From UHGV virus genome UHGV-0212642: a DNA stretch of 43,289 nucleotides. The stretch is one strand, 5' to 3'. The stretch comes from a virus. Position numbers and translations under genes: made by a program. The first letter of the stretch is position 1, and every line of letters begins with the position of its first letter. This document shows, in pieces, positions 6,779 to 22,294 of this stretch. A model generated the notes under the pieces. It was not told the DNA's origin. It saw only the letters and a list, made by a program, of their open reading frames with translations, and ran no database searches.

Positions 6779-9343
6779 TTAAATTCTTAACAATCTATCA
6801 TATATTACGTTTGAAATAGCATATCCGCCATTTTTATTAGGATGTACACCATCTTTGTACATCAAACCGTTTGAATTAGTAGTGTTGAAGTCTCCTAAAG
6901 CTCTGTATAAGCTAATAAATCCAATGTCTAAATCTTTAGCGATACGATATAATGCGTTGCTATATTCTGACATTCCTAACGCTGTATTTTGTACATTGTT
7001 TCCGCTCGGACTTATCAAAAATACACTTGCTAATGGTTTGCCTTCTTTTATTCGTGAAACGATTTCTTTCATATTTTTTTCGAAATCAGTGATTGTCATA
7101 CTCGCAGCCATATCATTCGTACCAAGTAAAATACCGAATGTGTTAGCGTTACAACGTTTGATTTGTTTAAACCAGTTGTCACGATCAGTTGCTACGATTT
7201 GAGACGATTTCAAACCACCGTTGCCTATTTTATGGATAACTACACCTTTATTGCCTTTATAAGCATAAGAGCCAATAAATGACACGAGACCCTCAACAAC
7301 TTCAAGTGTAATTGTATGTTTACCTAAATCTAGTTTGATTGGCGTTACTTCTTGTTGTGTAGCATCAACACTTACCCAGTCACCAGCATCTACTTTATAA
7401 CGCCATTTACCGACATTTAACGTGTGTAACTCATAATAATCTACTTCTTCGTTAAAAGTAATTACAATGCTATCTCCAACTGTAGAACTTTCAACCATAG
7501 CAGTATCTAAACCTTTAGCTTTTGGTCCGATGTCCAAATGAGAATCATATTGCGTCCAACTGCCATTTAGTTCTACACTTACTAATCCGTTTCCAGTATG
7601 GTTGTTAGCTAAACTAATAAAGCCAATACCACCATCAGCATAACCTAGTTTCATAAATTTCTCTTTAAGTGGTAAAGTTAGTCTGTCTCCACCTCTAAAC
7701 TCTCCACCTTGAACCCAACTGTCGCCAATAAACGCAATCTCTGTTTTCCCTGCGTAATCTGCATTTAATTGTTTGCTTATGTCAGCTGTGTATGATTTAA
7801 GTGTGTGTTTACCAAAAGAATCGATGTTATAATCAGTTTTATCTTGTGCAGCTTCCTTCTCTATAAATTTGCTAGGTATCTTTATTTCATACGGTATATA
7901 GCTTTCTGGCACTTTGTCGCTTTTAACAAGCATCGTTGAATTAATCGCACTAGTTAACATACTAAATCTTATATACCAAGCGTCTTGAGGTACAGTCATT
8001 TGAGTTGTTGCTGTTGTTGTGATTGGCATAAAGTCAAAGTTTTTATTATAAAAAGCATATGTGGCAAAATTATTGTTTTTAGATAATGTTGTCGCATCTT
8101 TAATGTAAATGTAATCACTCGCAGAATAGTTTGCGTTATCTGACAAAAGTCCATTAGTCTGATTAACATATTTGCTAGTCGTCACTTTTGAACTGTCGAA
8201 TAGGTTGTCTGATTGTTTGACAAAGTTAAGTTTATTCATATCTATAGATTGATCGTAAATCATCTCGTTATTTACAAATCTGTTGGGAATATTAGGGCTT
8301 AAACCAGGCAACTTGTAATAAAACTTTTCGTACGAAGTACTTGCATCTCCTTTTTCAATTTGGTATTGCAAGTAACTATAGCCAGCATAAACACCTGGTT
8401 TGAGTGTAGAAGTTCTTATGAAATAACAATCATCCGGCGTTTTAAATGTTCTTGGTTGGTTAGGTGTCGTAGCTCTAGACAAACCACTAATGAATTTTTT
8501 AGTTACATCATAAAAAGTAACAATATCTGACTGGCTTTGCGTGTATGCTGTGTTAGGTTGTACTGGTAAAAAGTCGCTTGTTACGTAACTTTCCGCTTTG
8601 CTTTCTTGACCGTTTAAATAATTTAATAATGTATCAAAACTCAATGTATTAGGATTGAATATATTTTTCCCAGTTAAAAGATAATCTGTTTTATCGTAAG
8701 ATACCGAACGACTATATATGCTGTTCATTCCTTTTAGTTCTTGTTTTTCTGCATCTGTCAAATCGTTGAAAGATATTTTACCGTCTTTACCAGGTTCGCC
8801 TTTAGAACCTTTAAATTTGTCCGGATTTTCATTAACGTAAGTCTTTAAATCCGTTTCTAACTTTTCTTTGAAACTATCGTCTAACAACCCCATAGCGTTT
8901 TCTTTCATTACTCTTTCGACTAAGTATTGTAAGCTATCAACATGGACTTCTTTACCAATAGGCCCAGTCATACCGCTGTCAGTAATAGTAAAGTAGAAGT
9001 TAGCAACATGTATACTGTCTTTGTCATTTGCTAAGAATAATTTAGCATCCATTTTGCCAACGTGTTGAATTACGTTATCTCTGACTTTGTATTGTATAAC
9101 GCCTTTTTTAGGCATTAATATATCTAACGGTTCATTTGTAAAAATAGAACCGTCTGAACAGAATAAATCTAATCGAGGTAACATATCTGTCTTTGTAAAG
9201 TCTAATACCTCGTTGTTGTTTTTAATTGTAATTCTGATGTAAGCTGAACCGTCGTCCTCTGTATAAAAATTAGCACCTATAAACCCATTTTCTACATTAC
9301 TTACATTAATATTAGTAACAACATCTTTTAATTTTTGTATCAT
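6779..9343 (-). CDS. Tail/baseplate protein: BppU-like N-terminal domain, collagen-like Gly-X-Y stretch, C-terminal SGNH/GDSL hydrolase
   Basis: ORF track start 9397 overlaps the upstream gene. Likely start is ATG at 9343 with AGAGGTG RBS. N-terminal BppU_N-like sequence, GSKGEPGKDGK, and C-terminal GDSL blocks (IAFIGDSW ... DGVHPN). Confidence 0.7.
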   Translation of the reverse strand: MIQKLKDVVTNINVSNVENGFIGANFYTEDDGSAYIRITIKNNNEVLDFTKTDMLPRLDLFCSDGSIFTNEPLDILMPKKGVIQYKVRDNVIQHVGKMDAKLFLANDKDSIHVANFYFTITDSGMTGPIGKEVHVDSLQYLVERVMKENAMGLLDDSFKEKLETDLKTYVNENPDKFKGSKGEPGKDGKISFNDLTDAEKQELKGMNSIYSRSVSYDKTDYLLTGKNIFNPNTLSFDTLLNYLNGQESKAESYVTSDFLPVQPNTAYTQSQSDIVTFYDVTKKFISGLSRATTPNQPRTFKTPDDCYFIRTSTLKPGVYAGYSYLQYQIEKGDASTSYEKFYYKLPGLSPNIPNRFVNNEMIYDQSIDMNKLNFVKQSDNLFDSSKVTTSKYVNQTNGLLSDNANYSASDYIYIKDATTLSKNNNFATYAFYNKNFDFMPITTTATTQMTVPQDAWYIRFSMLTSAINSTMLVKSDKVPESYIPYEIKIPSKFIEKEAAQDKTDYNIDSFGKHTLKSYTADISKQLNADYAGKTEIAFIGDSWVQGGEFRGGDRLTLPLKEKFMKLGYADGGIGFISLANNHTGNGLVSVELNGSWTQYDSHLDIGPKAKGLDTAMVESSTVGDSIVITFNEEVDYYELHTLNVGKWRYKVDAGDWVSVDATQQEVTPIKLDLGKHTITLEVVEGLVSFIGSYAYKGNKGVVIHKIGNGGLKSSQIVATDRDNWFKQIKRCNANTFGILLGTNDMAASMTITDFEKNMKEIVSRIKEGKPLASVFLISPSGNNVQNTALGMSEYSNALYRIAKDLDIGFISLYRALGDFNTTNSNGLMYKDGVHPNKNGGYAISNVIYDRLLRI

Positions 9344-9353
9344 AAATACACCT

Positions 9354-11234
9354 CTATTTATATTTGTCTTGAATGAAATATTTTCCAGTCGTTCCAACCT
9401 TTTTGTACAAACTGTTTATTGTTGTTGCTTGCGTTTGACACCATTCGATAGCTGTAGCATATTGCATAGTACCAGGTTTTTTAGGGTTCCAACGCATACG
9501 ATAAAGTGTTTGTTTGCCATTGTTGAAAAAGTTGCTTCTAACAAATTTTGCACCACCAGCTATACCTTTGGCTGGAGTTGTCCAACCTTTTCGTTTAGCG
9601 TATGCAATTGAAGCGTTAGGGTTGTTGTCATATACAGCTATACCGAAATAGTTGTATATACCATAGCGCCCACTCGCAAAGTTACTTGTACCGTTTCCAC
9701 TTTCTAAAAATGCATGTGCGATTAAATAAATTTCATTCACGTTATATTTTTTACAAGCACTAGCAAACGCTTTACCTTGTCCAGCTAAAGTGCCTTTGCC
9801 TTTAAGTATTTTGTTGAGTTTATCTACCGATATGCCTTGATATCTTCCTAAATCTAGCATTTGATAGTGTTGTACATTACTTTTCCATATTCGTGTTGGG
9901 TTCATAGCATTACTTGTTTGTTGACGAGTAGCATGCACCCAACCTGACCATTGCGTCGTTTTCATAGGTTTGCCATAAGCCATTTGTCTATCAAGCGCTT
10001 GTTTAAATGTGTATGGGCTCTTTTCAACGACCACTTTTGGTTTGAGTGGCGTTATTTTAGAATGACTTGATTTATCGACGCTCGTTTCTTTTGGATTAAC
10101 TTTGATTTTCATTTTAGATGAAGTACTGTGAATTGTTTCAACAAATAATTTATCTTTATTCTTATACATCGCAATAATTTTCTTCTTGATTTCTTCGTAC
10201 TTATCGTCGTTTGGTATACCGTCGACAATAAGGTCATATCCAATTGCATCTTTCATAGTGCGCCAAATGTTTTTATCTGCTGTTATTGTTGCATTAGATA
10301 GCTCTACTTTTTCATATTTCAAGGTATCAACACCGTACACAATAGCTCTTAGTTGATTGAGTAAAAATTGACGTTTGCTGTCTGTTTGACCTCCACAAAC
10401 TTCAATAACAAACCAACCGTTATGCGCTGGCGCTACTCTGTCAGTAGGACGACATTGCCAAATCATCTCTCTATCTACGAAAACGTGTGGATACTCATTT
10501 TCTTCAAGATACTTATTGCGCTGTGCGTAGATATCTTGTACAGAACGCATATGCTGTGACTCTTTGACGTATATACCTTTTAAATCGTTTAAGAAATCTC
10601 CGAACGCAATGTGATGATAGTTATATTCAAGTTCTTTGTCATAATTCATTAAAAATGATGTATAAGATAGTTTCTTTACTTCTTTGATTATCGGTTTTGT
10701 TTCTTCTTTTGTGTTTTTAGGTTTGTTGTCCGGTTGAGGCTCTGGCTTATTATCTGGTTTGCTGTCTGTCTTTTTCGTTTCTGGCTGATAAGGTGGTCGT
10801 ACAAAACCACTAATACCGTAATAAGAATGCTTAACTTTTGCTGCTGGAGAACCATTGTAACCATTAGCTCCATACCAATTTTGATCTACACTAGTAAAAT
10901 AACTTTTCGTAGACGGTCCTACCACTACAGCTGTATGACCAGTACCATTGTTGAATGATCCTTTTCCCCAAACCGCCATATCTCCGGGTTTAGGTACGAA
11001 ACTAGCTGTATTACGATAAAATCTAAACCCTTTTGGATAGTGATACCATGCCATTGCTATAGCGTTACCAGATGTAAAGAAACCCCAATACCTTTTGAAT
11101 ATATAGTTAGGTAAATCCCAACACTGCGCACCGTAATAGCCGTCAACATTCAACCTTTTTCCTATTCTTGACTTAGCCCATGCAGCAACTTCACTCGCTG
11201 TAGGTTTTCTGTTTTTTGGGTTAGGTAATCCCAT
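9354..11234 (-). CDS. Tail-associated peptidoglycan hydrolase (CHAP + glucosaminidase, TAME-like)
   Basis: 626 aa. N-terminal CHAP (CWDLPNYIF...GHTAVV). C-terminal mannosyl-glycoprotein endo-beta-N-acetylglucosaminidase-like region (YLIAHAFLESGNGTS). Position and architecture as in phi11 gp49. Confidence 0.8.
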   Translation of the reverse strand: MGLPNPKNRKPTASEVAAWAKSRIGKRLNVDGYYGAQCWDLPNYIFKRYWGFFTSGNAIAMAWYHYPKGFRFYRNTASFVPKPGDMAVWGKGSFNNGTGHTAVVVGPSTKSYFTSVDQNWYGANGYNGSPAAKVKHSYYGISGFVRPPYQPETKKTDSKPDNKPEPQPDNKPKNTKEETKPIIKEVKKLSYTSFLMNYDKELEYNYHHIAFGDFLNDLKGIYVKESQHMRSVQDIYAQRNKYLEENEYPHVFVDREMIWQCRPTDRVAPAHNGWFVIEVCGGQTDSKRQFLLNQLRAIVYGVDTLKYEKVELSNATITADKNIWRTMKDAIGYDLIVDGIPNDDKYEEIKKKIIAMYKNKDKLFVETIHSTSSKMKIKVNPKETSVDKSSHSKITPLKPKVVVEKSPYTFKQALDRQMAYGKPMKTTQWSGWVHATRQQTSNAMNPTRIWKSNVQHYQMLDLGRYQGISVDKLNKILKGKGTLAGQGKAFASACKKYNVNEIYLIAHAFLESGNGTSNFASGRYGIYNYFGIAVYDNNPNASIAYAKRKGWTTPAKGIAGGAKFVRSNFFNNGKQTLYRMRWNPKKPGTMQYATAIEWCQTQATTINSLYKKVGTTGKYFIQDKYK

Positions 11235-11371: not shown

Positions 11372-11683
11372 TCAAATACCAAAGACTATTCTTAGTATTG
11401 CTACGATTAGAGAACCGACAATGGTTCCAACCAATCCCAGCACCCACATTTTTATTTCTTTGATATTCTTTTTATTCTCTTTTTTATTCTCTTGATCTAG
11501 TTCACGTTCTCTATTGATGCTGTCCAGAGTAAAATTCATTTTTTGATTGACTAAATTTTGATTGTGTTGACCGTCTTTTATTTGCTCCAAAGAGGTAAAA
11601 ATTTTCTCGTCATTATCTTCTAATCTACTTACTCGACGCTCGAGGTCGCCTCTTTGGTTATTATCAACCATATACTCACCCAC
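11372..11683 (-). CDS. XhlA-like small coiled-coil protein with C-terminal transmembrane anchor
   Basis: 103 aa. N-terminal coiled coil and C-terminal hydrophobic helix (MWVLGLVGTIVGSLIVAILRIVFGI), the pattern of the XhlA haemolysin family. Confidence 0.5.
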   Translation of the reverse strand: MGEYMVDNNQRGDLERRVSRLEDNDEKIFTSLEQIKDGQHNQNLVNQKMNFTLDSINRERELDQENKKENKKNIKEIKMWVLGLVGTIVGSLIVAILRIVFGI

Positions 11684-11847
11684 TTTTAATATTTAAACAA
11701 CATTACAATTGAGAGTCTTCGACATACTCAACGTCTGTTAATTCTTTGTATTGTTCGGAAGTAATCCACTTTGATTTTACAAAAATCTTCATTTGTTCAT
11801 TGGTATATAATCCCATTTTGTAATATTTAATAACCCATTTGCCCATG

Positions 11848-12183
11848 TTAGTGGCCTCCTTGTAATTGTGCGACTTGTAACATTAAATTTGATACAACCG
11901 CGTTATTTTCTTCTAACTTACTATTCATACCAGCAACTTGTATTGTTAAATCGGCAATTAGTGTGTCCTTTTCGTCGACTGTCACATCATCTTTTTTTAG
12001 GGTATTTTCAAAATCTTCTTTGGATTGACCCACCCATTTTTGGCCGTCGTAATAAAAAGGCGCATATATACCTTGCGGAGGCTGTTCTTCTGTGTATTTT
12101 TCTTCTGGATAGACGTATTCGCCCTCCTCATTTTGATAAACCAAAACTTGTTGCCCATTTTTCCATAAGTAAACAACTTTCAT
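11848..12183 (-). CDS. Hypothetical tail-module protein
   Basis: ORF track start 12249 overlaps the upstream gene by 62 nt. Likely start is ATG at 12183 (MKVVYLWKNGQ...) with GGAGTGAGGAT RBS, 4 nt after the upstream stop. Confidence 0.5.
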   Translation of the reverse strand: MKVVYLWKNGQQVLVYQNEEGEYVYPEEKYTEEQPPQGIYAPFYYDGQKWVGQSKEDFENTLKKDDVTVDEKDTLIADLTIQVAGMNSKLEENNAVVSNLMLQVAQLQGGH

Positions 12184-12187
12184 ATCC

Positions 12188-13717
12188 TCACTCCGTCCAT
12201 TCGATTTGTGCATATGCATAATCTGTAGATGTCCACTGCGTACTGTCATATAAAACGTTGAATGTAACCGTTCCGGACGGCGTTAAAGTAACGCGACCAC
12301 CGTATCTATTTCTTGGTACTGCAACTGGTTGCATAACCATATCTTGGACAAAATCTTTTGGTAACAAAGCAATAGTTTGGCCATGTTGAATATTAGTTGC
12401 GTTAATTCTAACGTATTTTCTTGTAATGCCATTTTCTGTAATAGAACGATAAGCCGATTTAAAGCCGTTTTGCACAGAATTGTCATTACCAGGAGTTACA
12501 CCGTTAATTAATTGTAAATCGACCCAACCGGTGTCTATTATGTCGTTACTGAATTTTGTCCACGCTGTCCAATTGTTAGCGCCGTTTTTGGTGCGTAAGA
12601 ACAATTGGTTAGTGTTATAAGGTGTGAATATAAATTTCATGTAGTTTTCGTTTGTATATATTACAAACAGCATACCGTTACTTTTTATATTTTCTGGCAA
12701 ATTACTTGCGGCATATAGGTAATAAAAACCACTACTATTTATCATTGATTCTGGAGCGTTTAAGTCAAGGTTGTACAAGCTTATTGTACGTCCGTCAGAA
12801 CTCGTTAAGGCTTTCTTTTGCCAGTTCAAAGCGTCCATTTTGCTATCAACTTGACTAGGCGTGATAAAGCCATTGTTTTTTAAAGTCTCATTAAATTGAT
12901 TTACTTTATCATCTATAGATTGATTAGCATTGGTTACGTTGTCAGTGAAAGTTTTTGAACTATCGTCAGTTAGTTTTTGGAAAGTGCTTAATGACAAGTT
13001 GTAGTCAGTTAAAACAGAGTCACGTTTTGCGTCTATTTGACGTAATGACTCATCGCTAAGCTTAGTGATTTCGTTAGATGCAGTTACTTGAGCGTTAGCA
13101 ATATTTTGCGATGCTTCCGCTCCAGCTTGATTGATTTGTGAAGTAGCGTCTTTTGCTGTTTGTTTGATAGTTTCGACAAGACTTTCTAAGCTTCCAATAT
13201 CTTCTTGTAGTTGTTGAACTTTCAACTCTAATTGAGTGCGTAAATCGTCGAACATTCTAATATATTCAACTTTGATGTCGCTTTCAATTTGGTTAACAAG
13301 GCTATCTCTTACCATAAATGTGAATGTACCTAGAACAACAGTATCGTCTTTGCCAGTGTTATTAACATCGTTTAGAGATAAATAAACCTCTCCTAAAACT
13401 CTGCTATCTGTTGCGTTTTTTAAAAACCATTGTGGTACAGTGACACCAATTAAACCTCTCATCGGGTCTATAAAATCAATATCTAGTACACCTGAAGTTG
13501 TTGGTCTTTGTTTCTCGTTATTGTTCATTTCTTTAAAGAATGCATAACCTTTAACGTTCTTGTCGCTAATCAATAGCGGTTTATCATCTTTAGATACAAC
13601 AAATTGAAATTGTGCTGTGTTTTTATCTAAATTATAAAAACCAATACCTCTGTCAGATATTGGCTTTAAATATGCTTCTTCTTCTAAATTGATGCGACCG
13701 ACTTTTTGTAATTCCAT
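12188..13717 (-). CDS. Baseplate upper protein / tail fibre (BppU-like N-terminus, coiled-coil shaft, C-terminal head domain)
   Basis: 509 aa. N-terminal BppU_N-like region, long heptad-repeat region, C-terminal globular domain. Position within the baseplate cluster. Confidence 0.65.
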   Translation of the reverse strand: MELQKVGRINLEEEAYLKPISDRGIGFYNLDKNTAQFQFVVSKDDKPLLISDKNVKGYAFFKEMNNNEKQRPTTSGVLDIDFIDPMRGLIGVTVPQWFLKNATDSRVLGEVYLSLNDVNNTGKDDTVVLGTFTFMVRDSLVNQIESDIKVEYIRMFDDLRTQLELKVQQLQEDIGSLESLVETIKQTAKDATSQINQAGAEASQNIANAQVTASNEITKLSDESLRQIDAKRDSVLTDYNLSLSTFQKLTDDSSKTFTDNVTNANQSIDDKVNQFNETLKNNGFITPSQVDSKMDALNWQKKALTSSDGRTISLYNLDLNAPESMINSSGFYYLYAASNLPENIKSNGMLFVIYTNENYMKFIFTPYNTNQLFLRTKNGANNWTAWTKFSNDIIDTGWVDLQLINGVTPGNDNSVQNGFKSAYRSITENGITRKYVRINATNIQHGQTIALLPKDFVQDMVMQPVAVPRNRYGGRVTLTPSGTVTFNVLYDSTQWTSTDYAYAQIEWTE

Positions 13718-16377
13718 TATTTAACCCCCCAAGTAACCAACGCGATAGCGCAGCCACGTTCTTCGGTGTAAGGTGTAGTAATTTCTTGAACCCAACCGCG
13801 TCCATTAACGTTATCTTTGTAACCAATTCCAGCACGAGAATTAATAAAGTCATTCGCTACTACATCTTTTTCAACGTTAGTATAGATTTGACCGATTAAC
13901 CCGACTGTGTTCCATTCTGGTCTATCAGAACGTGACACATAAGGTAAATCTGGGTTGTAGTCCGGATTTTCTACCGGCTCGTCACGCCATTCGTGCGTAA
14001 CATTGCCCTCATCGTCTACAAATTCTCTTTGTACACGTTTAGTAACAGTAACGCCGTATTCATTAACTAAATATCTGTCTTTATGATGATAAGACTTGTC
14101 ATTGGCTACAAGTGCTGCTGTACCTGATATAACGCCCAAAATACGTTCGTTTGGTTGTGCTTTTCTAATTTTGCCGTTATCCAAAGTAACAATAGTGCCT
14201 AACTCAATTGCTTGGCCTGATTGGCTTTCGTATAACTCTGCGATATCAGCACTATTTTGTGTTAATTTGCCAGCTAGCGTTAAATTACCGCTGTAAGTAC
14301 TTAAGTCAAACTTGATATTTGATGTTGAAGCGTTACCACTTGAACCATAACCACCAACGATGTGATAGTTACCAGGAGATTTGACACGGTTACTGTTTAT
14401 AATCATTTGTGTATGTCCTGATTTTTCTGTTTCTGAATTTAATGAACTTAATATTCCAGAACGTGAACCATAAGCTTTAGATCCAGAGCCAGAACCTATG
14501 ACATAACTACGATTACTATACGCTCTTGAATTACCTGTAGAGGCAATCACTGCGCTTGCTTCTGCTGTTGCTGCTGAACCTGTAGAACCGATGCTTGCTC
14601 CGCCTTTAAATGAAGTTGGGGCTACATCATATTTTTCCCCAGCGATCCACGCTGCATTTGCGTAGTTGTCGGCTGTTACACCACTTATAGTAGCTGTATT
14701 ATTTGTTACCCTTAAACCAACACCGGAGCCGTTACCTCGTAAGTTACAGTTTGTTATTTTGACGTCGTGTAGGCTACTACCAACACCAATACCGATGTTG
14801 TTAGACGAATTACAAATGTTGATGTTGTTAAGGATATATCTCGAACCTCTGTTAGTACCACCAAACAACCTAATGTCGACATCTGCATTTCTAAAGTTTC
14901 TTACGTTGATGTTATTTAAAACTACGTTTTCTGACATGAATTGTACTGCTATAGCCGGCTGTTTAGTGTCTAGTTTGCCATTGTCTAATACACCAAAATC
15001 ATTGTCGCCAATAGCCGTAAAGTTATTTACTGATACATTGCGATAAGCACTGATTAACAGTGCTCTTGGTGTAGAGCCAGGATAAACACCATTATATTTA
15101 GGATATAGAGCCAAACAGTTGTTTAATACAACATCATAAGCAGTTTTACTTTTAGGGTCTGTTTTAGCTCTGTGGTGGCCAATATGACGTATGTTATAAG
15201 CTCTTGTATCTTCTACGGACAAGTGATTATTAACAAACACTGCAGTTGCCGCACTTGCTGTTTCATGAGCTTTAATCTCTACGCCACCAAAATTACCTTG
15301 TGTTTTGTTGTCTGATAAAAAGACAAACTGTGAACCGTCGTCTATCTCAATACCGTTGTTGTTACTTCCACCAGTAGGAGAATGAGCATAACAGTTTGAA
15401 ATTGTAATATATCTTGAGTGGTGCGTTGTAATACCGTCATCCCCACAAGCATAAGCTTCACAGTTATCAATGTGAATGTGTCTACTTTCTAATGATGACG
15501 GCACTCTATTTCCGTCCCCCTCGTAGTAGTAAGCGTCATTTGCATAAGTAACGTCAATACAATGCAACAATGCATCGTGAGATTTAATATTATAAATGTA
15601 ACCGTTTGTCACACCAGCAAATCTGATGTTAGATGAACGAGAGCCTCCGGTTGGTTGCAACGCTTTATTTTGTCTAAATTTATTTCCGTCAAATTCAAAA
15701 TTTTCCAAGGAAATATTTTTAGCTGCACCACTCATTTTTAAGTTAGTGATGCCGATATTTTCAGCCGGCGTATTGTCCATAAACTTAATTTTAGTAATAT
15801 CTTTACCTTGTCCGACTAAACGCGAGTTATTAGGCATTTTGATACCAGTTGTTAAATAAGTACCAGCGCTCATAGTAACAAGTACGTTACCGTCGCCCAA
15901 CGCGTCTTGAAAGGCTTTTGTACTATCTTTTTGGCCCGTTGGATCTCCGCCAAAATCATCAACGTTAACAATACGTCTAATACGTTTGTCTAATTCGTTG
16001 AATGCTGCTTCACGCTCTCCTTTTTCACGTAAAAAGTCATGTAATAATCGAGCGTCTAACGTTTCGAAATTCTTTGCATCAATTGATGTTCGACTTGCTC
16101 TTAATTCTTGTACGCCGTCGCCATTATGCCCCAAAACAAGCTCCTCTATTTGTTTTTGTAAATAGTTAAAATATTCATTTGAATATATCTTAACACCACT
16201 TTGCAACTCGTGTATAACTTGTTCTGTTTTATGTGCAGGCTTTTGTGTTTTTTCGTGATACTTTTTATATTCTTCATTCTTATTAAGCGCACGCTCGATA
16301 ATTTCGTAATTATCTTCGTTTTGGCTAACGAATTTATTACCAAATAACGAGTGTAGCTTTTTTGTTAATTCAATCAT
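13717..16377 (-). CDS. Tail fibre/tailspike with right-handed beta-helix (pectate-lyase-3-like) putative polysaccharide depolymerase domain
   Basis: 886 aa. N-terminal coiled coil, then VDDFGGDPTGQKDSTKAFQDAL (Pectate_lyase_3 N-cap motif). Many beta-helix rungs (NCEAYACGDDGITT, NNGIEIDDGS, GNFGGVEI ...). Gly/Ser-rich C-terminal region. Confidence 0.7.
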   Translation of the reverse strand: MIELTKKLHSLFGNKFVSQNEDNYEIIERALNKNEEYKKYHEKTQKPAHKTEQVIHELQSGVKIYSNEYFNYLQKQIEELVLGHNGDGVQELRASRTSIDAKNFETLDARLLHDFLREKGEREAAFNELDKRIRRIVNVDDFGGDPTGQKDSTKAFQDALGDGNVLVTMSAGTYLTTGIKMPNNSRLVGQGKDITKIKFMDNTPAENIGITNLKMSGAAKNISLENFEFDGNKFRQNKALQPTGGSRSSNIRFAGVTNGYIYNIKSHDALLHCIDVTYANDAYYYEGDGNRVPSSLESRHIHIDNCEAYACGDDGITTHHSRYITISNCYAHSPTGGSNNNGIEIDDGSQFVFLSDNKTQGNFGGVEIKAHETASAATAVFVNNHLSVEDTRAYNIRHIGHHRAKTDPKSKTAYDVVLNNCLALYPKYNGVYPGSTPRALLISAYRNVSVNNFTAIGDNDFGVLDNGKLDTKQPAIAVQFMSENVVLNNINVRNFRNADVDIRLFGGTNRGSRYILNNINICNSSNNIGIGVGSSLHDVKITNCNLRGNGSGVGLRVTNNTATISGVTADNYANAAWIAGEKYDVAPTSFKGGASIGSTGSAATAEASAVIASTGNSRAYSNRSYVIGSGSGSKAYGSRSGILSSLNSETEKSGHTQMIINSNRVKSPGNYHIVGGYGSSGNASTSNIKFDLSTYSGNLTLAGKLTQNSADIAELYESQSGQAIELGTIVTLDNGKIRKAQPNERILGVISGTAALVANDKSYHHKDRYLVNEYGVTVTKRVQREFVDDEGNVTHEWRDEPVENPDYNPDLPYVSRSDRPEWNTVGLIGQIYTNVEKDVVANDFINSRAGIGYKDNVNGRGWVQEITTPYTEERGCAIALVTWGVK

Positions 16378-16388
16378 TGGCAGCCTCC

Positions 16389-18245
16389 TTAGCCATAAAA
16401 TGAGTAGTAGTTGTTAATTAGTTCATACATGATGACCTCATGACCTTTGTCATTGAAATGCACACCGTCCGGCATGCTTGATTTTCTGAACGACGGGCTG
16501 TAAGGTCTAAATTGTTCATATCTATAAGCATCGAAAACCGGTACATCTAATTCGTTACAAGCATCAACTTGCGCGTTGACATAATCTAATAAAGTTTTAC
16601 CATTTTCGTTTTTATCTGTGTCTTTGCGTTTGATTTTTCCGTCGTCAACATAACACTGTCTAGCAGCCGTCATAACGATTATTTTTGATTTAGGGTTATT
16701 CGTCTTGATGTTTTGAATTGCGCTGTAGAATGCCCCGTAAAACGTTTTTAAATCAGTTTTATCAGTACCGATATCAATGTTATTAATCCAGTCATCATCT
16801 GTGCCTTGTACGATGATTAAATCGGCTTTTATCTTAGAAGCTTGTTCATATATGCTGTTGTCTTTAGTTGTAGACATCGTCGCACCACTAACAGCCAAAT
16901 TCGTTTGTTTAGCTTTAATCTTTTTAGCTAACAACTGTGTAAAGTTTGTTTTAGCATAAGAACCTTTAGCGATACTATCGCCAATTGTTCCAATGCTTTT
17001 AATTTTTCTGATGTTCGATTTTGGTGCGAAGTCATGCACGATTGTTCCGTTCGCAGTTGTAACATTTTTAGAGTTAGCTTCTTTTAATTTCTTATTTAAA
17101 TCTTCCGTTTTACTAAGTAAATCACTTGTTGTCTTAGTTGCAGCACGTAACTCGGCTTGCATTGCTTTAGCGTCTTTTGCTGGATCTGATTTATTAGTTT
17201 TCAGTGCTTTAACATAGCTTGCAGCATTGTTTACAGCTTTCATATATCTATCTTGTAATCTGAAATCGCCTAGCACTACATCTTGTTTAATAATGTTGTT
17301 ATAAACGTCATATTCTGTCGTTATTTCAACAATACGAACCAAGTCATTAACGCCAATCAATTCGTCGATAACTCTTACAACGTCGCCGATTTTTGGTAAT
17401 GCCTCTGGAAACTTCTTACGTAAAGCCACAAAGTCTAAAGATATAGAAAGCGTTCTGCTTTCCATAATAGCCAATTCCATCGCTTTCTTAAGTGTGTTTT
17501 CTTTAGTCATTCGGCCGTCGATAATTGGTGGAGCCTCTCTCTTGCCTATAACTTGAGCTAACGGATCAGTGTATTCAAACTGCAAACTTGCTTCATTGAA
17601 TGTTTGTTGGTTATCAAATCCGCCATAACCTCTAATGTAGGTGTAGCATTTAGAAGCATCTTCTTGAACTTTTACGTTATTAGCATTCACACCCGCTTTA
17701 ATAAAGTAATCAGCCTCATGTTGGACTTTATCATAGAGGTTAAACGTTTTAGTTGAAGTGTCGTATTTAAACTCTAAATCGTATTGTTCTAATCCTTTTT
17801 TGAATATCTCTAAACGTGTGTCATGGTTGCCTAGATTTTCAAATTTATAAGAACTAACTTTAGAATGTAGTTTGTATTTATAGCCAGTACCTTTGAAAAC
17901 CAAGTCGAAATACCTTTGACCGGTAAAACTACCGTTATAAACCTCATAAATTCTAGAACAGTTTAAATCGTCAAGCTCGACTAATCTGGCTTTGATTGAC
18001 AACTTTTCTTTTTGTCCAATAGATGTTTTATCTATCATTACAATTCTAAATTCTCTATGATCGTTTGCGCCACCGACATTAGTTATCGTCCACATTTTTG
18101 TTATAGCTCCAACAGCGTCAAATGTGTATCGGTTTTCGATTATATCGATGTCTAGCGTGCTATCTTCGTTTATTTTTTCATTCACTTTACATGTTGCAGG
18201 GAGAGAATACCCGACACCTTGTAAACTCTTTAATAATATTGGCAT
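16389..18245 (-). CDS. Tail-associated lysin (Tal)-like protein with C-terminal SGNH/GDSL hydrolase domain
   Basis: 618 aa directly downstream of Dit. N-terminal Tal/prophage-tail-like domain. C-terminal GDSL blocks (IGTIGDSIAKGSY ... DGVHFNDKGHEV). Confidence 0.7.
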   Translation of the reverse strand: MPILLKSLQGVGYSLPATCKVNEKINEDSTLDIDIIENRYTFDAVGAITKMWTITNVGGANDHREFRIVMIDKTSIGQKEKLSIKARLVELDDLNCSRIYEVYNGSFTGQRYFDLVFKGTGYKYKLHSKVSSYKFENLGNHDTRLEIFKKGLEQYDLEFKYDTSTKTFNLYDKVQHEADYFIKAGVNANNVKVQEDASKCYTYIRGYGGFDNQQTFNEASLQFEYTDPLAQVIGKREAPPIIDGRMTKENTLKKAMELAIMESRTLSISLDFVALRKKFPEALPKIGDVVRVIDELIGVNDLVRIVEITTEYDVYNNIIKQDVVLGDFRLQDRYMKAVNNAASYVKALKTNKSDPAKDAKAMQAELRAATKTTSDLLSKTEDLNKKLKEANSKNVTTANGTIVHDFAPKSNIRKIKSIGTIGDSIAKGSYAKTNFTQLLAKKIKAKQTNLAVSGATMSTTKDNSIYEQASKIKADLIIVQGTDDDWINNIDIGTDKTDLKTFYGAFYSAIQNIKTNNPKSKIIVMTAARQCYVDDGKIKRKDTDKNENGKTLLDYVNAQVDACNELDVPVFDAYRYEQFRPYSPSFRKSSMPDGVHFNDKGHEVIMYELINNYYSFYG

Positions 18246-18256
18246 TGGTTCTCCTC

Positions 18257-19186
18257 CTATCTAAAGTAAAGTTTGTGTTTGAATGTGATTTTTTGCATTG
18301 GTACGTTAGCTCTGAAATAGTTACTCCCAGGATACAAAACAGGTTGCTGTTGTGTGATGTTGTACTTATCGATACGTAAGTTATTTCTATAAGTGTGTAA
18401 GCCGTCAAACTTAATAACATCGCCCGGTTTTATTTCTATACCTTTAATTCGAGCTATGTCACTATGTTCAGTATAGAATGTGAATTCTTGCGTTTTCTTA
18501 ACTCTCTCGCCGACTTTAATTTCAACAATTGATTTTTGGTTAAATTGGTTAATAGGTACATCGCCGTCGTAAGTGACAAAGTCGTACATTGTGTTATAAA
18601 ATGTAAATTTTCTTTCGCTTTCTGATTTATTGAAAGGTAAATCGTCAGGAACTGCCCATTTTTCCATATTCGGGTCTTTTTCAAGGTCTGTACTATATGC
18701 GATACTTTCAAAATATGGTAAATCAACTGTTTCAAATTCTATGTCTATTTCTCCAGTTAATTTAGTGGTATCTATTGATATAGAATTGACCAACCCTACA
18801 AATATTTGTCTGCCGTCAACATATTCAAGCTCAAAATCTTGCGTTTTATGGCTGAACAAACTTTCGAATTTAATTTCTGGGTTAGGCGTTGCTAACTCAC
18901 GTAAATAGTAATGACCGCTTAACAAGTTCTGCAAGCCGGTTTTAAGATGAGAAGCATAAGCCATTTTAGATACTTTGTATCGTACTTTTAAACTTACTTT
19001 TTTTAATTCTTCGTTAGTTGAATTGTAAAAGCGGCCGTTTACTCTCTCGATTTTTTCGAACTCTCTTGAATAACCAGCACCCTCTACATCAAAAGAAACA
19101 ACCTCTAATGCTTTTTGAGTAAAAGGGTTGTCACTGATTTTATATTTATTTTTGTCTTTAATTATTTCTACATCATGTGCTATCAA
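18257..19186 (-). CDS. Distal tail protein (Dit, Sipho_tail family)
   Basis: 309-aa ORF immediately downstream of the tape measure gene. Size and position typical of Dit. Confidence 0.65.
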   Translation of the reverse strand: MIAHDVEIIKDKNKYKISDNPFTQKALEVVSFDVEGAGYSREFEKIERVNGRFYNSTNEELKKVSLKVRYKVSKMAYASHLKTGLQNLLSGHYYLRELATPNPEIKFESLFSHKTQDFELEYVDGRQIFVGLVNSISIDTTKLTGEIDIEFETVDLPYFESIAYSTDLEKDPNMEKWAVPDDLPFNKSESERKFTFYNTMYDFVTYDGDVPINQFNQKSIVEIKVGERVKKTQEFTFYTEHSDIARIKGIEIKPGDVIKFDGLHTYRNNLRIDKYNITQQQPVLYPGSNYFRANVPMQKITFKHKLYFR

Positions 19187-19198
19187 TTAACAACCCTC

Positions 19199-22100
19199 CT
19201 AAAATTGACTAATTACAGCTGCTTTTGAATTTGTTTCTTCAATGTAAGATTTGATAGCTGGTATATCACTTTCATTTCTAACATTTACATTTACGATAGG
19301 TCTGTTGTTCTCTTGTAAGCTGTGTCTCACATCTTTAGACATATGAGCGTCTACAGAGCCGTTTAAAGAGCCTCCTAAGCCGTCTGTTAAGTCTGATGAC
19401 AGTGATGTGTTTAAATCAGGCTGGAAAGCATTAGTAAGGTTCTTAGCTACATTACGAACTGCGTTAATCGGTTTGTTTTGGTCTGTTAAAATACCTATTC
19501 CTAAACCTTGTGATACATATTCTCCAAGGCCTCTAAATACACGAGACGGAGAATGTATACCTAAAGCTCTTTTTGCCGCACTTACAGCACTAGAAGCTAC
19601 ATTTCTAGCAGCATCAACAACCCAAGACATACCTCTTTTAATACCGTTGACCAAACCACGCATTAAATCTAAACCGACACTGACAAATCTACCAACAAAA
19701 TTTTTGATAGCATTCCAAGCATTTTGCATGCCGTTTCGGCAAGAGTCAACAACTCTGTGGAAACCATTTACAACACCTTGTACAAATCTGACCATTGCAC
19801 TAATGATTGAAATAACCCAATTTCGAGCTGTATTAACGATGTAATTATACGCTTGCACCATTTTTTGCCAAACAGATTGAGCCACGCGGCCAAACCAACT
19901 CGTTACAGATGACCATATTCGAGTGACAAAACCGACTATAGCGGACCATATCTGACCCCAACTTGTGATATTAGTACCAAGAATTTTGTTTAAAATACTG
20001 AAAATAAAGCTAGATATCTGATTAAAAATTGATACAATCGCACTCCAAATCGTATTTAAAACATTAGAAATCGTATTGTACAAAGTAGTCCAAGCACCAG
20101 AAAAGTCGCCAGATAAAAATTGAATGAATGCAGTAAAAATACCTACAATCAATTGAACTGCCGCTGATATAACCGCTCCTATAGCCGTGAATATCACTTG
20201 TATAGCTGTCCATAACGCTTGGAAAGCAACAATTAACAATTGGATAACACCCATAACGGCAACACCTAAAATTTGCATAAACATTTGTCCTAATGCTTGT
20301 AAGATAGGCATTATCGGTTGTAACGTTGTCATTATTGAGTTCCAAAGTTGTGTTAACCAGCCAACTACGGCTGAAATCGCTGTAGAAATGGCTGTAGTTA
20401 TGCCATTCCAAGCTTCGATGATCATATTTCTAAAATCAGCGTTTGTTTTCCATAAATAGACAATTACTGTTACTAGTCCAGCAATTGCAGCAACTACCAT
20501 GCCGATAGGGCTAAATATCAATGAAAACGTTGCAGCCAATCCCTCTAACAAACTAGTAACGGATGCAATAGGGGTCATTAATAAACCAAATGCACCCTTT
20601 AAAACATTGACTACTGTAGTTATTAGACTACTACTTGCGATAAATCTACCTATAGACGTTATAGCTTGTAATATTGTCATACCAAACACGTTGCTTAACA
20701 AACTACCTATCGCTATGATTGGCGCCATTAAAGCCCACATAGCACCACCTAAAATAATCAATACACCAATAATTTTGGCTACTGCTGGATGTGCTTCAAA
20801 CAACTTAGCTACAAACTGTGCTAAACCATTGATGAAGTTGAGTAAAGCGCTAGCTATAGGTGCCATTGCTGTACCAAACGCGACAAGTATTCTAATGATG
20901 TTACCAATTAAACTCATGATAACTGGTCCGTTTTGCTGTACGTATTGTATAAACTGTTTAAAGCCCTCTGATTTGCCTACTTGTTCTGACCATGTTCTAA
21001 ATTGACTAGTCATTTTAACTAACCAATCAAATATACCGGCGCTATTTGCAGCAAACGCGTGCATAAGGTTACCAATACCCATGAACACATTTGCGAATAT
21101 TTGGCCTATTTTAGGTAAATTCGTTTTTGTATATTCGATAAAGCTTTGTATTGCATTTTGTCCGGCAACACTGTTAGCCCATTTTTGGAACGAAATACTC
21201 ATATTCTGTAAGCCTTGCGACATAAACTTGAATAAAGGCATAAATTGAGTAAATATGTTGACTAAGCCGTCGCCAAAGCGTCCAGCAGCGTTTAATAAAT
21301 CTCCAAATATTTGAACACCTACCGTATTTAACGCTTGAAACGCTTTTTTAGCTGTGTTTGATGTTGCAACCCATTTTTCAAACTTTTGAGCGTTGAAATC
21401 AACCAAATCAGCTACACCACTTAAAAATGGTGTAAGACTTTTTAACGCTGTTTGGACACCGTTCATAGCCGATGACATCGCGCCAAAAATAGAGTCAGCA
21501 TTCATCTTTATAATTTGTGTCCATTCATCTTTTAAGCCTTGTAAACTTTTCTTATAAGCGTCTGTCGCATCTGTTGATTGTAATAAGCCGTCGTTTAACA
21601 TTTTAATAGCACTGATGCCCATTCCAGCCATTGCAACAGCACCTAAACCAGCAACAGAGAATGCACCAGCTAAACCGATAACACCGCCACCTAATACACC
21701 AACAGCGTTTAATACGGCCATGAGTGCGGGTACTAGTCCAGCGATAACGGGGATAAGTGCTTGCACACTTGCAATCATTACGCCTTTAATTTGCTGACCG
21801 AATATTGTTCCAAATGTTCTTATTTTAGTTGCTAGAGCGTCCATTTTATCGCCGTATTCATCAAGCGATTGGCCTAATGCTCTAGTAAGTATTTGTGCTC
21901 TTGTCAAACCTCTTGTGTCAAAATTAACTCTGACTGTTTTGTCAAACAAAGTAGCAAGTGCAATTTTAGACGATGCAATAGCTCTTTTTAGACCACTATT
22001 ATTACCGTCAATCTTTACATTCTTTTCTCTTATACCAGCTAATTTTGCTTTTATACCGTCGATAACACGACGTAAAGGGCTAGCATTACCGTCAATGTCA

Positions 22101-22294
22101 ACGTTATGCTCACGCCACTTCATCGCCATGGCTTTAGCGCGTTGCAAAGCTTTTTGAAACTTCGATATATCAGCTTTAACATCTGTCTCTATTTCATCTG
22201 GTATAGAGGTTTTGGCTAAACTTTGAGCTTTTCGCACGTTGTTTTGAAAATCTCTAATGTTAGCCATGATTTTGGCCATAAATCTCGAGTCCAC
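19199..22294 (-). CDS. Tail tape measure protein
   Basis: 1031 aa. N-terminal coiled-coil region. Long hydrophobic, Gly/Ala-rich, low-complexity central part. Located after the G/GT chaperones. Confidence 0.85.
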   Translation of the reverse strand: MDSRFMAKIMANIRDFQNNVRKAQSLAKTSIPDEIETDVKADISKFQKALQRAKAMAMKWREHNVDIDGNASPLRRVIDGIKAKLAGIREKNVKIDGNNSGLKRAIASSKIALATLFDKTVRVNFDTRGLTRAQILTRALGQSLDEYGDKMDALATKIRTFGTIFGQQIKGVMIASVQALIPVIAGLVPALMAVLNAVGVLGGGVIGLAGAFSVAGLGAVAMAGMGISAIKMLNDGLLQSTDATDAYKKSLQGLKDEWTQIIKMNADSIFGAMSSAMNGVQTALKSLTPFLSGVADLVDFNAQKFEKWVATSNTAKKAFQALNTVGVQIFGDLLNAAGRFGDGLVNIFTQFMPLFKFMSQGLQNMSISFQKWANSVAGQNAIQSFIEYTKTNLPKIGQIFANVFMGIGNLMHAFAANSAGIFDWLVKMTSQFRTWSEQVGKSEGFKQFIQYVQQNGPVIMSLIGNIIRILVAFGTAMAPIASALLNFINGLAQFVAKLFEAHPAVAKIIGVLIILGGAMWALMAPIIAIGSLLSNVFGMTILQAITSIGRFIASSSLITTVVNVLKGAFGLLMTPIASVTSLLEGLAATFSLIFSPIGMVVAAIAGLVTVIVYLWKTNADFRNMIIEAWNGITTAISTAISAVVGWLTQLWNSIMTTLQPIMPILQALGQMFMQILGVAVMGVIQLLIVAFQALWTAIQVIFTAIGAVISAAVQLIVGIFTAFIQFLSGDFSGAWTTLYNTISNVLNTIWSAIVSIFNQISSFIFSILNKILGTNITSWGQIWSAIVGFVTRIWSSVTSWFGRVAQSVWQKMVQAYNYIVNTARNWVISIISAMVRFVQGVVNGFHRVVDSCRNGMQNAWNAIKNFVGRFVSVGLDLMRGLVNGIKRGMSWVVDAARNVASSAVSAAKRALGIHSPSRVFRGLGEYVSQGLGIGILTDQNKPINAVRNVAKNLTNAFQPDLNTSLSSDLTDGLGGSLNGSVDAHMSKDVRHSLQENNRPIVNVNVRNESDIPAIKSYIEETNSKAAVISQF

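Follow-up and report, generated by a model that had tools for sequence, protein, structure and literature searches.

The 43,289-nt virus genome UHGV-0212642, which is the window throughout, belongs to a complete temperate siphovirus, a prophage of S. lugdunensis. It encodes an 886-residue protein that a sequence-only reading had taken to be a tail fibre with a pectate-lyase-type beta-helix and a probable depolymerase. This raises the question of how such a protein is attached to the virion, which polymer it acts on, and whether its design is as unusual as that reading supposed. We consider it probable that the protein is a baseplate receptor-binding tailspike, a self-cleaving chimera of three modules that recognizes, and probably hydrolyzes, wall teichoic acid.

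The gene and its baseplate neighbors

An 886-aa protein had been placed at 13717-16377, and the open reading frame (ORF) list and translation do show an 886-codon ORF there, on the minus strand (16377→13717), with an ATG start and a good ribosome-binding site. Translation of the plus strand over 13717..16377 meets many stops. The ORF is confirmed as a real gene; PHROG 4775 ('pre-neck appendage protein') is matched over the full length of the protein (E=0), and an identical protein sequence is held in NCBI from S. lugdunensis genomes under the name "peptidase G2". The gene and its neighbors are as follows.

18257..19186, minus strand: Dit (distal tail protein); PHROG 33 'distal tail protein Dit'
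16389..18245, minus strand: Tal, the tail-associated lysin, which carries a GDSL/SGNH domain at its C-terminus, directly upstream of the receptor-binding protein (RBP) gene; PF24650 TT1_Tal, PF06605, PF13472
16384..16390 (16390-16384), minus strand: Shine-Dalgarno sequence AAGGAGG, 6 nt ahead of the start codon at 16377; read from the sequence
13717..16377, minus strand: whole gene, 886 aa and 96.9 kDa, probable precursor of a receptor-binding tailspike of the baseplate; ORF list, translation, PHROG 4775
12188..13717, minus strand: FibL-like lower baseplate fiber (BppU_N), its start codon and the RBP stop sharing 1 nt; PF10651 BppU_N, PHROG 257
9354..11234, minus strand: tail-associated cell-wall hydrolase (CHAP + glucosaminidase); PF05257, PF01832, PHROG 759
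6779..9397, minus strand: FibU-like upper fiber (BppU_N) that has an additional GDSL/SGNH domain at its C-terminus; PF10651, PF13472

Annotation of the neighbors by Pfam and PHROG gave the gene order Dit–Tal–RBP–FibL–…–Hyd–FibU, in which the 886-aa protein occupies the RBP slot between Tal and FibL, as in baseplates of the phi11 Gp45 / 80alpha gp61 type. Compared with the 80alpha annotation, the order is identical to that of gp58-gp68, with gp59 as the positional counterpart of Tal. The RBP stop TAA and the start ATG of the following gene share 1 nt (TAATG), and the 80alpha gp61/gp62 junction is arranged in the same way. The host, S. lugdunensis, is coagulase-negative, as the sequence-only reading had suspected.

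An N-terminal stem of the phi11/80alpha type

15976..16377, minus strand: helical stem, predicted virion-attachment module of the phi11 Gp45 / 80alpha gp61 RBP type, aa 1-134; PDB matches, BLASTP, model
16231..16257, minus strand: His41-X7-His49, predicted counterpart of the phi11 Gp45 His42-X7-His50 Fe3+ site; register with the 80alpha gp61 alignment

In a PDB sequence search, aa 3-122 matched 6v8i_BH (E 7.9e-10), 5efv (E 1.4e-9) and 9m7x (E 1.4e-7), the phi11/80alpha RBP stems aligning with aa 7-116 at about 1e-9, and BLASTP of the stem against 80alpha gp61 gave 31% identity over aa 4-115 (E 4e-16). The LGHNGDG hinge motif of the phi11 Gp45 and 80alpha gp61 stem is also present, and H41 and H49, which correspond to the His-X7-His Fe3+ site defined in phi11 Gp45 (PMC4901313), are both invariant across 40 homologues. 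AlphaFold2 modeled the stem as helical with lower pLDDT there, a drop that is expected because a trimeric coiled coil was modeled as a monomer. On these matches, aa 1 to ~134 constitute a phi11/80alpha-type coiled-coil stem in which the predicted His-X7-His iron site is kept. The sequence-only reading had passed over both this helical stem of about 130 aa and the autochaperone described below.

The likeness to phi11 Gp45 and 80alpha gp61 (PDB 5EFV, 6V8I) consists of the genomic slot and the homologous stem, and identity overall is about 15%. Similarity to 5efv and 6v8i stops at aa ~116-122, and the five-bladed beta-propeller platform and tower of the phi11/80alpha proteins are absent. Where their platform and tower bind GlcNAc-ribitol-phosphate teichoic acid, the S. 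lugdunensis phage protein instead carries a gp12-type beta-helix and chaperone.

A phi29 gp12-type beta-helix with a conserved core

14608..15975, minus strand: right-handed parallel beta-helix, predicted enzyme domain, counterpart of phi29 gp12 D2, aa 135-590; PF12708, PF13229, gp12 alignment, model
15172..15462, minus strand: most conserved block, aa 306-402, CEAYACGDDGITTHHS...NGIEIDDGS...GGVEIKAH...RHIGHH, candidate catalytic or metal-binding center; identity to gp12, invariant residues
14248..14607, minus strand: distal domain, rich in Gly and Ser and with short strands at regular intervals, corresponding to the final domain of mature gp12, aa 591-710; composition, model, gp12 alignment

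Pfam detected PF13229 (Beta_helix) and, over aa 136-365, PF12708 (E 9.2e-14; 52.2 bits where the cut-off is 27, far above chance). PF12708 carries the name Pect-lyase_RHGA_epim in the Pfam copy used and is the family once named Pectate_lyase_3; the motif DFGGDPTGQKDSTKAFQDAL (aa 141-160), cited earlier as a Pectate_lyase_3 N-cap, lies at the start of the match. In a phmmer search against the PDB, crystal structures of phi29 gp12 matched aa 126-881 (E 4.5e-127). The AlphaFold2 monomer had a pLDDT of 83 overall, mostly above 90 and with regular strands over about aa 140-700. Its best Foldseek matches in the PDB were gp12 (3suc, E 2.8e-49; 3gq7, TM 0.79; also 3gq8), followed by tailspikes and polygalacturonases. 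The protein has a homologue of gp12 D2, a right-handed parallel beta-helix, and the structure prediction that had been proposed as a check returned the rungs expected of it.

Conservation peaks within this helix. Two 50-aa windows over aa 301-400 are 56-66% identical to phi29 gp12, against 35% for the whole protein, and D313, D314, H319, E344, D346, D347, E367, K369, H371, R397, H398 and H402 are invariant among the Staphylococcus, Bacillus prophage and phi29 sequences. We infer from this pattern that the block at aa 306-402 is a candidate catalytic center.

The distal domain has a Gly plus Ser content of 32-40% per 50-aa window over aa ~590-700, aligns to about aa 570-691 of gp12, and in the model shows strands about every 16 residues at a pLDDT of about 90. 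Among Staphylococcus clades it is less well conserved than the core helix. The Gly/Ser-rich module had been assigned to the C-terminus; it is in fact internal, and the C-terminus (aa 711-886), where Gly and Ser are not enriched, is a Peptidase_G2 chaperone.

A C-terminal chaperone with a conserved cleavage motif

13720..14247, minus strand: Peptidase_G2 intramolecular chaperone, 19.8 kDa, aa 711-886, which the mature spike is predicted to lack; PF11962, PDB matches
14236..14250, minus strand: predicted autocleavage site Ala710|Asp711 with Glu714, aa 710-714; aligned to phi29 Ser691|Asp692...Glu695

PF11962 (Peptidase_G2) matches aa 657-882 (E 1.4e-56), and the chaperone region matches the C-terminal fragment of gp12 (PDB 3gqh, E 4.4e-31). 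The cleavage motif is conserved, with D711, E714 and E717 invariant in every sequence compared and the residue preceding the scissile bond being Ala here and Ser in phi29 gp12. Mature gp12* terminates at residue 691 (PMC6542822), and 3suc, the uncleaved 'pre-mature' crystal form of gp12, has Gln where Glu695 stands. The C-terminal module is a chaperone of the self-cleaving kind and not a binding module, and alignment to gp12 predicts autocleavage at Ala710|Asp711. Recombinant Dpo7, a staphylococcal orthologue described below, ran mainly as an apparently uncleaved band of about 98 kDa with a minor 32-kDa fragment (PMC4658415), a result that warns against taking efficient autocleavage for granted in the staphylococcal clade.

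Relatives of the three modules

Phi29 gp12 (PDB 3GQ7, 3SUC, 6QZ9; a MEROPS G2 type peptidase) is homologous over aa 126-881, sharing the beta-helix, distal domain, autochaperone and cleavage motif X|D-x-A-E. It attaches to the podovirus collar by its own N-terminal arm, aa 1-100 (PMC6542822), in place of which a siphovirus RBP stem is found here; a gp12-type collar-binding arm is absent, the 18% identity of aa 1-125 to the gp12 N-terminus in a forced alignment being not significant.

Outside staphylococci, most occurrences of the gp12-type module are in phages and prophages of Bacillus (phi29-likes, phi105, rho14, SPR). The siphovirus and prophage homologues of that other genus (phi105 ORF41, rho14, SPR; B. 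velezensis, B. atrophaeus and B. glycinifermentans prophages) are 35-39% identical, much less than the staphylococcal orthologues. Several of the Bacillus prophage homologues span query residues 1-881, and the architecture of stem, gp12-type tassel and chaperone therefore occurs in Bacillus siphoviruses too. A further case is Dpo31, the EPS depolymerase of Cobetia phage Carin-1 (PDB 28LX / 28NB / 8CK1), which matches aa 586-880 (E 5.9e-36; chaperone D4, 28nb, E 3.2e-29). Only the distal domain and Peptidase_G2 chaperone are in common; its host is Gram-negative and its enzyme domain is unrelated in sequence, and the presence of the chaperone beside an unrelated enzyme domain indicates that the chaperone is a portable cassette.

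Among the closest known relatives is Dpo7, the gp18 'pre-neck appendage protein' that S. epidermidis phage vB_SepiS-phiIPLA7 encodes; it is collinear with the S. lugdunensis phage protein (888 against 886 aa, 76% identity). Full-length, collinear orthology (76-77% identity, 100% of length) extends to about 25 S. epidermidis phages, among them E72, 456, 459, 27, 48, CNPH82, PH15 and phiIPLA5, whose RBPs share the three modules and likewise follow Tal and precede FibL. Identities of 70-78% are found with many prophage proteins, from S. warneri, S. haemolyticus, S. pettenkoferi and other species. At the DNA level megablast detected only one isolated phage, IME1365_01. The Dpo7-clade phages infect S. 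epidermidis, whereas the source phage has S. lugdunensis as its host; against that clade the stem is only 46-48% identical (aa 1-100) and the beta-helix core 76-92%, the distal rungs and Gly/Ser domain being the most variable parts after the stem. The phage 48 orthologue (gp19) was detected in purified virions by LC-MS/MS (PMC8125051 Table S1).

Function and substrate

The proposal of a tail-fiber depolymerase or RBP gains support from the fold, from the RBP slot in a phi11/80alpha-type baseplate and, by analogy, from the enzymology of gp12 and Dpo7. In the mechanism that we favor, the stem would plug the spike into the Dit-Tal-FibL baseplate as a trimeric coiled coil with a His-X7-His iron lock, probably as six trimers per baseplate by analogy with phi11 and 80alpha, and aa ~135-710 form a tassel of the phi29 gp12 type. 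The Peptidase_G2 chaperone most likely nucleates trimerization after translation and would then cut itself off at Ala710|Asp711 through catalysis by Glu714, leaving a virion subunit of about 77 kDa. During infection of the coagulase-negative host, the mature spikes would recognize its glycosylated poly(glycerol-phosphate) wall teichoic acid and probably hydrolyze it as gp12 does. This would allow the baseplate to pass down through the layer of teichoic acid and reach the peptidoglycan, on which Tal and the CHAP/glucosaminidase hydrolase would act.

Phi29 gp12 recognizes and digests wall teichoic acid, according to a review (PMC9863714). Phage E72, whose RBP is 77% identical to the spike, depends on GroP wall teichoic acid that TagE has glucosylated, and it also transduces S. 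lugdunensis, a carrier of tagE-pgcA-gtaB; on the other side, it is blocked by cell wall and not by purified wall teichoic acid (PMC11005348). Dpo7 itself has been tested experimentally and has depolymerase-type activity (PMC4658415), giving halos and dispersing polysaccharide-type biofilms (PMC4658415; PMC11335607). Neither an ica deletion nor, in S. aureus, a tagO mutation that abolishes wall teichoic acid stopped Dpo7 from making halos (PMC11335607); because of the tagO result, wall teichoic acid is not the sole Dpo7 substrate, at least on S. aureus.

The spike might instead be primarily an exopolysaccharide depolymerase that clears biofilm matrix (PNAG/PIA, or another matrix or capsule polysaccharide) rather than processing teichoic acid, which we regard as unlikely. 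Dpo7 was first described in this way, having cleared >90% of attached cells from polysaccharide-type biofilms and not from the protein-based biofilm of S. aureus V329, and halos surround phiIPLA5 and phiIPLA7 plaques (PMC4658415). Many polysaccharide hydrolases and lyases also have the beta-helix fold. Against this, the module is spread over phages of Staphylococcus and Bacillus, whose hosts share glycerol-phosphate teichoic acid and not any common exopolysaccharide. Dpo7 was equally active on the ica-deletion strain (PMC11335607), a solved structure exists for just one close homologue, gp12, which is described as recognizing and digesting teichoic acid (PMC9863714), and E72 adsorption needs teichoic-acid glucosylation (PMC11005348).

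It is distinctly unlikely that the protein is a binding-only RBP in which the beta-helix is a rigid, lectin-like scaffold and cleavage has been lost. Beta-helix tailspikes without catalysis exist, and the authors of the E72, 456 and 48 genomes label the orthologue just as an RBP. The binding of E72 also hinges on sugar decoration (PMC11005348). This reading is disfavored because no part of the protein is better conserved from phi29 to staphylococci than the presumed active-site block, and if there were neither catalysis nor metal binding the invariance of its Asp, Glu and His residues would be hard to account for; the halos and biofilm dispersal by Dpo7 also speak against it. A genuine pectate-lyase-type polysaccharide lyase, acting by beta-elimination on a uronic-acid polymer, is highly improbable, for while PF12708 does match at the N-terminal cap and first rungs, the likeness to polygalacturonases, mannuronan epimerases and alginate lyases is at the fold level only (11-18% identity, with polygalacturonases and epimerases at 12-15%) and the specific relative, gp12, has an E-value >100 orders of magnitude better; 'pectate lyase' is a mere fold label for this protein.

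Taken as a whole, a teichoic-acid-directed receptor-binding tailspike remains our preferred reading, and its design proves less exceptional than first thought. Rarity in S. aureus siphoviruses holds, since S. aureus is given as the host in only 3 of the 74 staphylococcal phage records with the beta-helix and chaperone part, but the same design is the norm in siphoviruses of coagulase-negative staphylococci. Siphoviruses of S. epidermidis and others in this group carry it as their standard RBP, and it has been annotated and studied since 2007-2015. The S. lugdunensis phage spike is thus real but ordinary, an instance of a design already partly characterized in the phages of coagulase-negative staphylococci.

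Gene and domain organization

The 13717..16377 interval is an 886-codon open reading frame (ORF) with an ATG start on the minus strand according to the ORF list and its translation; a plus-strand reading of the same interval is ruled out, its translation being riddled with stops. An AAGGAGG motif is positioned 6 nt 5' of the ATG (at 16377), and the TAA of the gene has one base in common with the ATG of the downstream gene (TAATG). The peptide DFGGDPTGQKDSTKAFQDAL was located at residues 141-160 of the product. Searches of Pfam returned the following domains:

Residues 136-365: PF12708, E 9.2e-14, over the gathering score
Within the 886-aa protein: PF13229, Beta_helix
Residues 657-882: PF11962, Peptidase_G2, "IMC autoproteolytic cleavage domain", E 1.4e-56

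PF12708 is the family once named Pectate_lyase_3. NCBIfam contained no model for the protein, and PHROGs assigned its full length to phrog_4775, "pre-neck appendage protein" (E=0). The sequence-only reading had described a pectate-lyase-type beta-helix followed by a Gly/Ser-rich C-terminal module. The beta-helix is real and well beyond chance, and the domain description had to be mended: the Peptidase_G2 domain had been overlooked, and the Gly/Ser stretch is internal (residues ~590-700), the last 176 residues being without such enrichment.

Predicted fold and N-terminal stem

An AlphaFold2 model built from a 40-sequence alignment had a mean pLDDT of 83, with values >90 over about residues 140-700. 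The N-terminus was modeled as helical, followed by regular short strands in a long series, spaced at ~16 residues in the distal region, and by a mixed-beta C-terminal domain. Searching the PDB with this model by Foldseek placed gp12, the phi29 tailspike, at the top (3suc, E 2.8e-49; 3gq7, TM 0.79), followed by exopolygalacturonases, mannuronan epimerases and the HK620 and Phi92 tailspikes at 11-18% identity. As gp12 ranks first, a fold other than the beta-helix is not what structure prediction gives, and this part of the sequence-only reading holds. PDB sequence search likewise matched gp12 to residues 126-881 (6qz9, E 4.5e-127; also 3suc and 3gq7). By both sequence and fold the protein thus belongs to the gp12 tailspike family, with the exception of its N-terminal arm.

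That arm (residues 3-122) matched the N-terminal stems of two S. aureus siphovirus receptor-binding proteins (RBPs), 80alpha gp61 (6v8i, E 7.9e-10) and phi11 Gp45 (5efv, E 1.4e-9), in a PDB sequence search, and BLASTP of residues 1-135 against gp61 gave 31% identity over residues 3-115 (E 4e-16). In the register of this alignment, His41 and His49 align with Gp45 His42 and His50, a pair that binds Fe3+ along the stem's three-fold axis (PMC4901313). Neither histidine varies among 40 homologues. This His-X7-His Fe3+ "lock" (16231-16257, minus strand) is kept although the stem otherwise diverges more than any other part of the protein. A third solved protein, "Gp17" (PDB 9m7x_A), also has the stem in common (residues 3-122, E 1.4e-7). 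The likeness to the phi11/80alpha RBP family is confined to the stem and the gene position, as the 886-aa protein is without the propeller platform and tower.

Genomic setting

The window appears to hold an entire temperate siphovirus genome, circularly permuted. Gene calls on the source contig are consistent with its annotation, which includes the following features:

40-1063, plus strand: HTH protein overlapping an M78/ImmA-like peptidase
1346-2314, plus strand: candidate defence gene, 322 aa, with DUF3644 and an EC042_2821 restriction-endonuclease-like domain
2496-3878, plus strand: large serine integrase
6779-9397, minus strand: FibU-like protein, BppU_N plus SGNH/GDSL esterase domain (residues 724-857)
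9354-11234, minus strand: CHAP+glucosaminidase hydrolase
11372-12249, minus strand: small genes between FibL and the hydrolase (tail-fibre/assembly-like, 47-aa XkdX, DUF2951), matching 80alpha gp64-gp66
12188-13717, minus strand: FibL/BppU_N, directly after the RBP gene
16389-18245, minus strand: Tal with an SGNH/GDSL esterase domain at residues 416-606
18257-19186, minus strand: Dit
19199-22294, minus strand: tape-measure protein
42068-42856, minus strand: AntA antirepressor, at the opposite end of the window from the HTH/M78 pair

Everything besides the integrase, the defence gene and the HTH/M78 pair is on the minus strand, including the AntA antirepressor, replication genes, head genes, a holin and a CHAP-amidase-SH3_5 endolysin. 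In PADLOC, the product of 1346-2314 hit PDC-S19, a candidate defence family (E 1e-146), and its position, flanked by the serine integrase and repressor genes, makes it likely to be a prophage-borne anti-phage gene.

The order of 80alpha gp58-gp71 matches the window gene for gene, with the gene under study filling the slot of the RBP gp61. A neck or head location is rejected because the gene sits in the baseplate module, and the database names "pre-neck appendage", "neck protein", "head protein" and "minor head protein" are carry-over from phi29 annotation. The 133-aa ORF listed at 11848-12249 is probably the 111-aa product of the source-contig gene calls. The FibU-like ORF is listed as 872 aa, far longer than its 80alpha counterpart gp68 (1173-nt gene); its TTG start puts 44 nt of the ORF inside the upstream hydrolase gene, and the true start may therefore be further in. 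The GDSL domains of Tal and the FibU-like protein may be esterases whose targets are substituents of teichoic acid or peptidoglycan.

Source and relatives

The exact protein is present in NCBI (e.g., AMG64683.1) as [quoted passage not shown], and its exact sequence was found on 45 contigs, the largest being a 2.61-Mb chromosome. Family members at 99% identity carry the name S. lugdunensis, bearing out the earlier suggestion of a coagulase-negative host. Relationships to isolated phages are evident at the protein level only: megablast of the gene gave a single partial match, IME1365_01 (77% over 45%), while protein searches identified ~25 S. epidermidis siphoviruses as the best matches (full-length identity 76-77%), including CNPH82, PH15, phiIPLA5, phiIPLA7, E72, 456, 459, 27, 48 and BE20. 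Next came S. haemolyticus phage IME1365_01 at 74% identity, S. aureus phage 37 at 54% and the 6ec/SEP9 group at 52%. The protein falls within the coagulase-negative-staphylococcus RBP clade that includes Dpo7 (gp18 of phiIPLA7, 76% identical).

A query lacking the stem matched 133 phage records, 74 from Staphylococcus and 46 from Bacillus, the latter comprising phi29-like podoviruses and the siphoviruses phi105, rho14 and SPR. Only three of the 74 Staphylococcus records give S. aureus as host, in agreement with the rarity in S. aureus siphoviruses proposed from sequence. A scan of species-representative genomes showed that many Staphylococcus species carry the protein at full length and that Bacillus prophages have copies at 35-39% identity. 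Together, the phage records and the genome scan place the gp12-type module mainly in Staphylococcus and Bacillus phages, whose hosts have glycerol-phosphate teichoic acids.

RBP copies of staphylococcal or Bacillus type, 71-77% identical over the full length, were also encountered in OR842880.1 ("Xanthomonas phage SU1") and in contigs labelled Rheinheimera tilapiae and Promicromonospora sp., and one at 39% identity in a Streptomyces sp. contig. The lysis genes of SU1 and the window are 75% identical at the DNA level. We rejected these labels as true host range in favor of probable contamination or mislabelling.

Conserved core, variable regions and maturation site

Identity to the 886-aa protein by region
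Dpo7, residues 1-100: 46-48%
Dpo7, residues 150-450: 76-92%
Dpo7, chaperone: 70-76%
15 closest clade representatives, stem: 29-52%, with a single 20-aa window (81-100) at 87%
15 closest clade representatives, core helix (residues 141-460): 72-90%
15 closest clade representatives, distal rungs (residues 461-600): 49-67%
15 closest clade representatives, Gly/Ser domain: 56-76%

Identity to phi29 gp12 is 35% overall and peaks at 56-66% in two 50-aa windows spanning residues 301-400. Candidate core residues were chosen by their conservation in a set of 16 sequences that reaches from Staphylococcus to phi29, and D313, D314, H319, E344, D346, D347, E367, K369, H371, R397, H398 and H402 were invariant. 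This pattern of conservation suggests that the block of residues 306-402 and its invariant positions may form a catalytic or metal-binding center, with the stem a putative virion-specific adaptor and the distal part probably host-specific.

Mature phi29 gp12* terminates at residue 691 (PMC6542822). The phi29 sequence W-S691|D692-F-A-E695-Y-F-E-S aligns with S-A710|D711-I-A-E714-L-Y-E-S, and the uncleaved "pre-mature" crystal form 3suc has Gln in the Glu695 position. D711, E714 and E717 show no substitution in 40 staphylococcal homologues, nor in a broader set with Bacillus prophages and phi29. Autocleavage is thus predicted at Ala710|Asp711, with computed products of 77.1 and 19.8 kDa. Because recombinant Dpo7 ran mostly at ~98 kDa (PMC4658415), we do not take cleavage in the Dpo7 clade as established. 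In phi29, the intramolecular chaperone of the appendage is missing from virions (review PMC9863714).

Proposed function

Published work on orthologues and phi29 bears on what the spike does. The phage 48 orthologue (gp19, 888 aa) was found in purified virions (PMC8125051 Table S1) and assigned as the RBP of an 80alpha-like baseplate (PMC8125051). Binding of phage E72 requires that TagE has glucosylated the GroP wall teichoic acid; E72 transduces S. lugdunensis, where tagE adjoins pgcA and gtaB (PMC11005348). The S. lugdunensis GalNAc transferase TagN is functional and apparently poorly expressed (PMC6771913). The phi29 appendages recognize the wall teichoic acid of B. subtilis and digest it (review PMC9863714). 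Recombinant Dpo7 was non-lytic and dispersed staphylococcal biofilms of the polysaccharide type but not the protein type (PMC4658415), and its halos still formed on S. aureus when tagO was mutated and on a strain with ica deleted (PMC11335607). The RBP-classification preprint of Krusche et al. does not discuss this clade and mentions neither E72 nor phi29.

In the mechanism we propose, a 97-kDa precursor would be translated first, its chaperone would drive trimerization, and the trimerized precursor would self-cleave at Ala710|Asp711. The trimers would dock on the baseplate via the putatively Fe-locked stem, and the spike would recognize, and probably hydrolyze, glycosylated GroP wall teichoic acid, after which Tal and the hydrolase would approach the peptidoglycan.

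An exopolysaccharide depolymerase, which the biofilm results for Dpo7 favor and the Dpo7 halos on the ica deletion and the teichoic-acid requirement of E72 oppose, appears unlikely. An RBP that binds without hydrolysis, which the E72 binding data favor and the invariant Asp, Glu and His residues of the core and the Dpo7 halos oppose, seems quite unlikely. A true pectate lyase, as the PF12708 match might be read literally, is rejected as extremely improbable, the polygalacturonase and epimerase likeness being one of fold only at 11-18% identity.

Returning to teichoic-acid hydrolysis, we tentatively raise, at low confidence, the idea that staphylococcal gp12-type spikes are putative poly(glycerol-phosphate) phosphodiesterases in which the core is generic and sugar or host specificity lies in the distal rungs and Gly/Ser domain (residues ~460-700). 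Such a core might attack other glycerol-phosphate polymers, e.g., lipoteichoic acid, which would account for the Dpo7 halos on the S. aureus tagO and ica mutants. If this is true, nature would have provided, in the S. lugdunensis variant, a specificity swap with which the determinants could be mapped.

The chimeric architecture is already known as the common RBP of coagulase-negative-staphylococcus siphoviruses, also found in Bacillus siphoviruses; since the architecture, gene position, virion location and depolymerase-type activity of orthologues have been published, the protein raises no new question. Specific to it are the S. lugdunensis host and ~23% divergence from characterized proteins. 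Its practical value is modest, as the likely host-range determinant of a S. lugdunensis prophage and as a natural variant (~77% identical) of Dpo7, an enzyme already under study as an anti-biofilm agent. Comparison of the variants from S. lugdunensis, S. epidermidis and S. haemolyticus would set the conserved, presumably catalytic core beside the parts that vary (stem, distal rungs and Gly/Ser domain) and could help to find which residues recognize the glycosylation of teichoic acid. On this recognition depends the transfer of genes by phages between coagulase-negative staphylococci.
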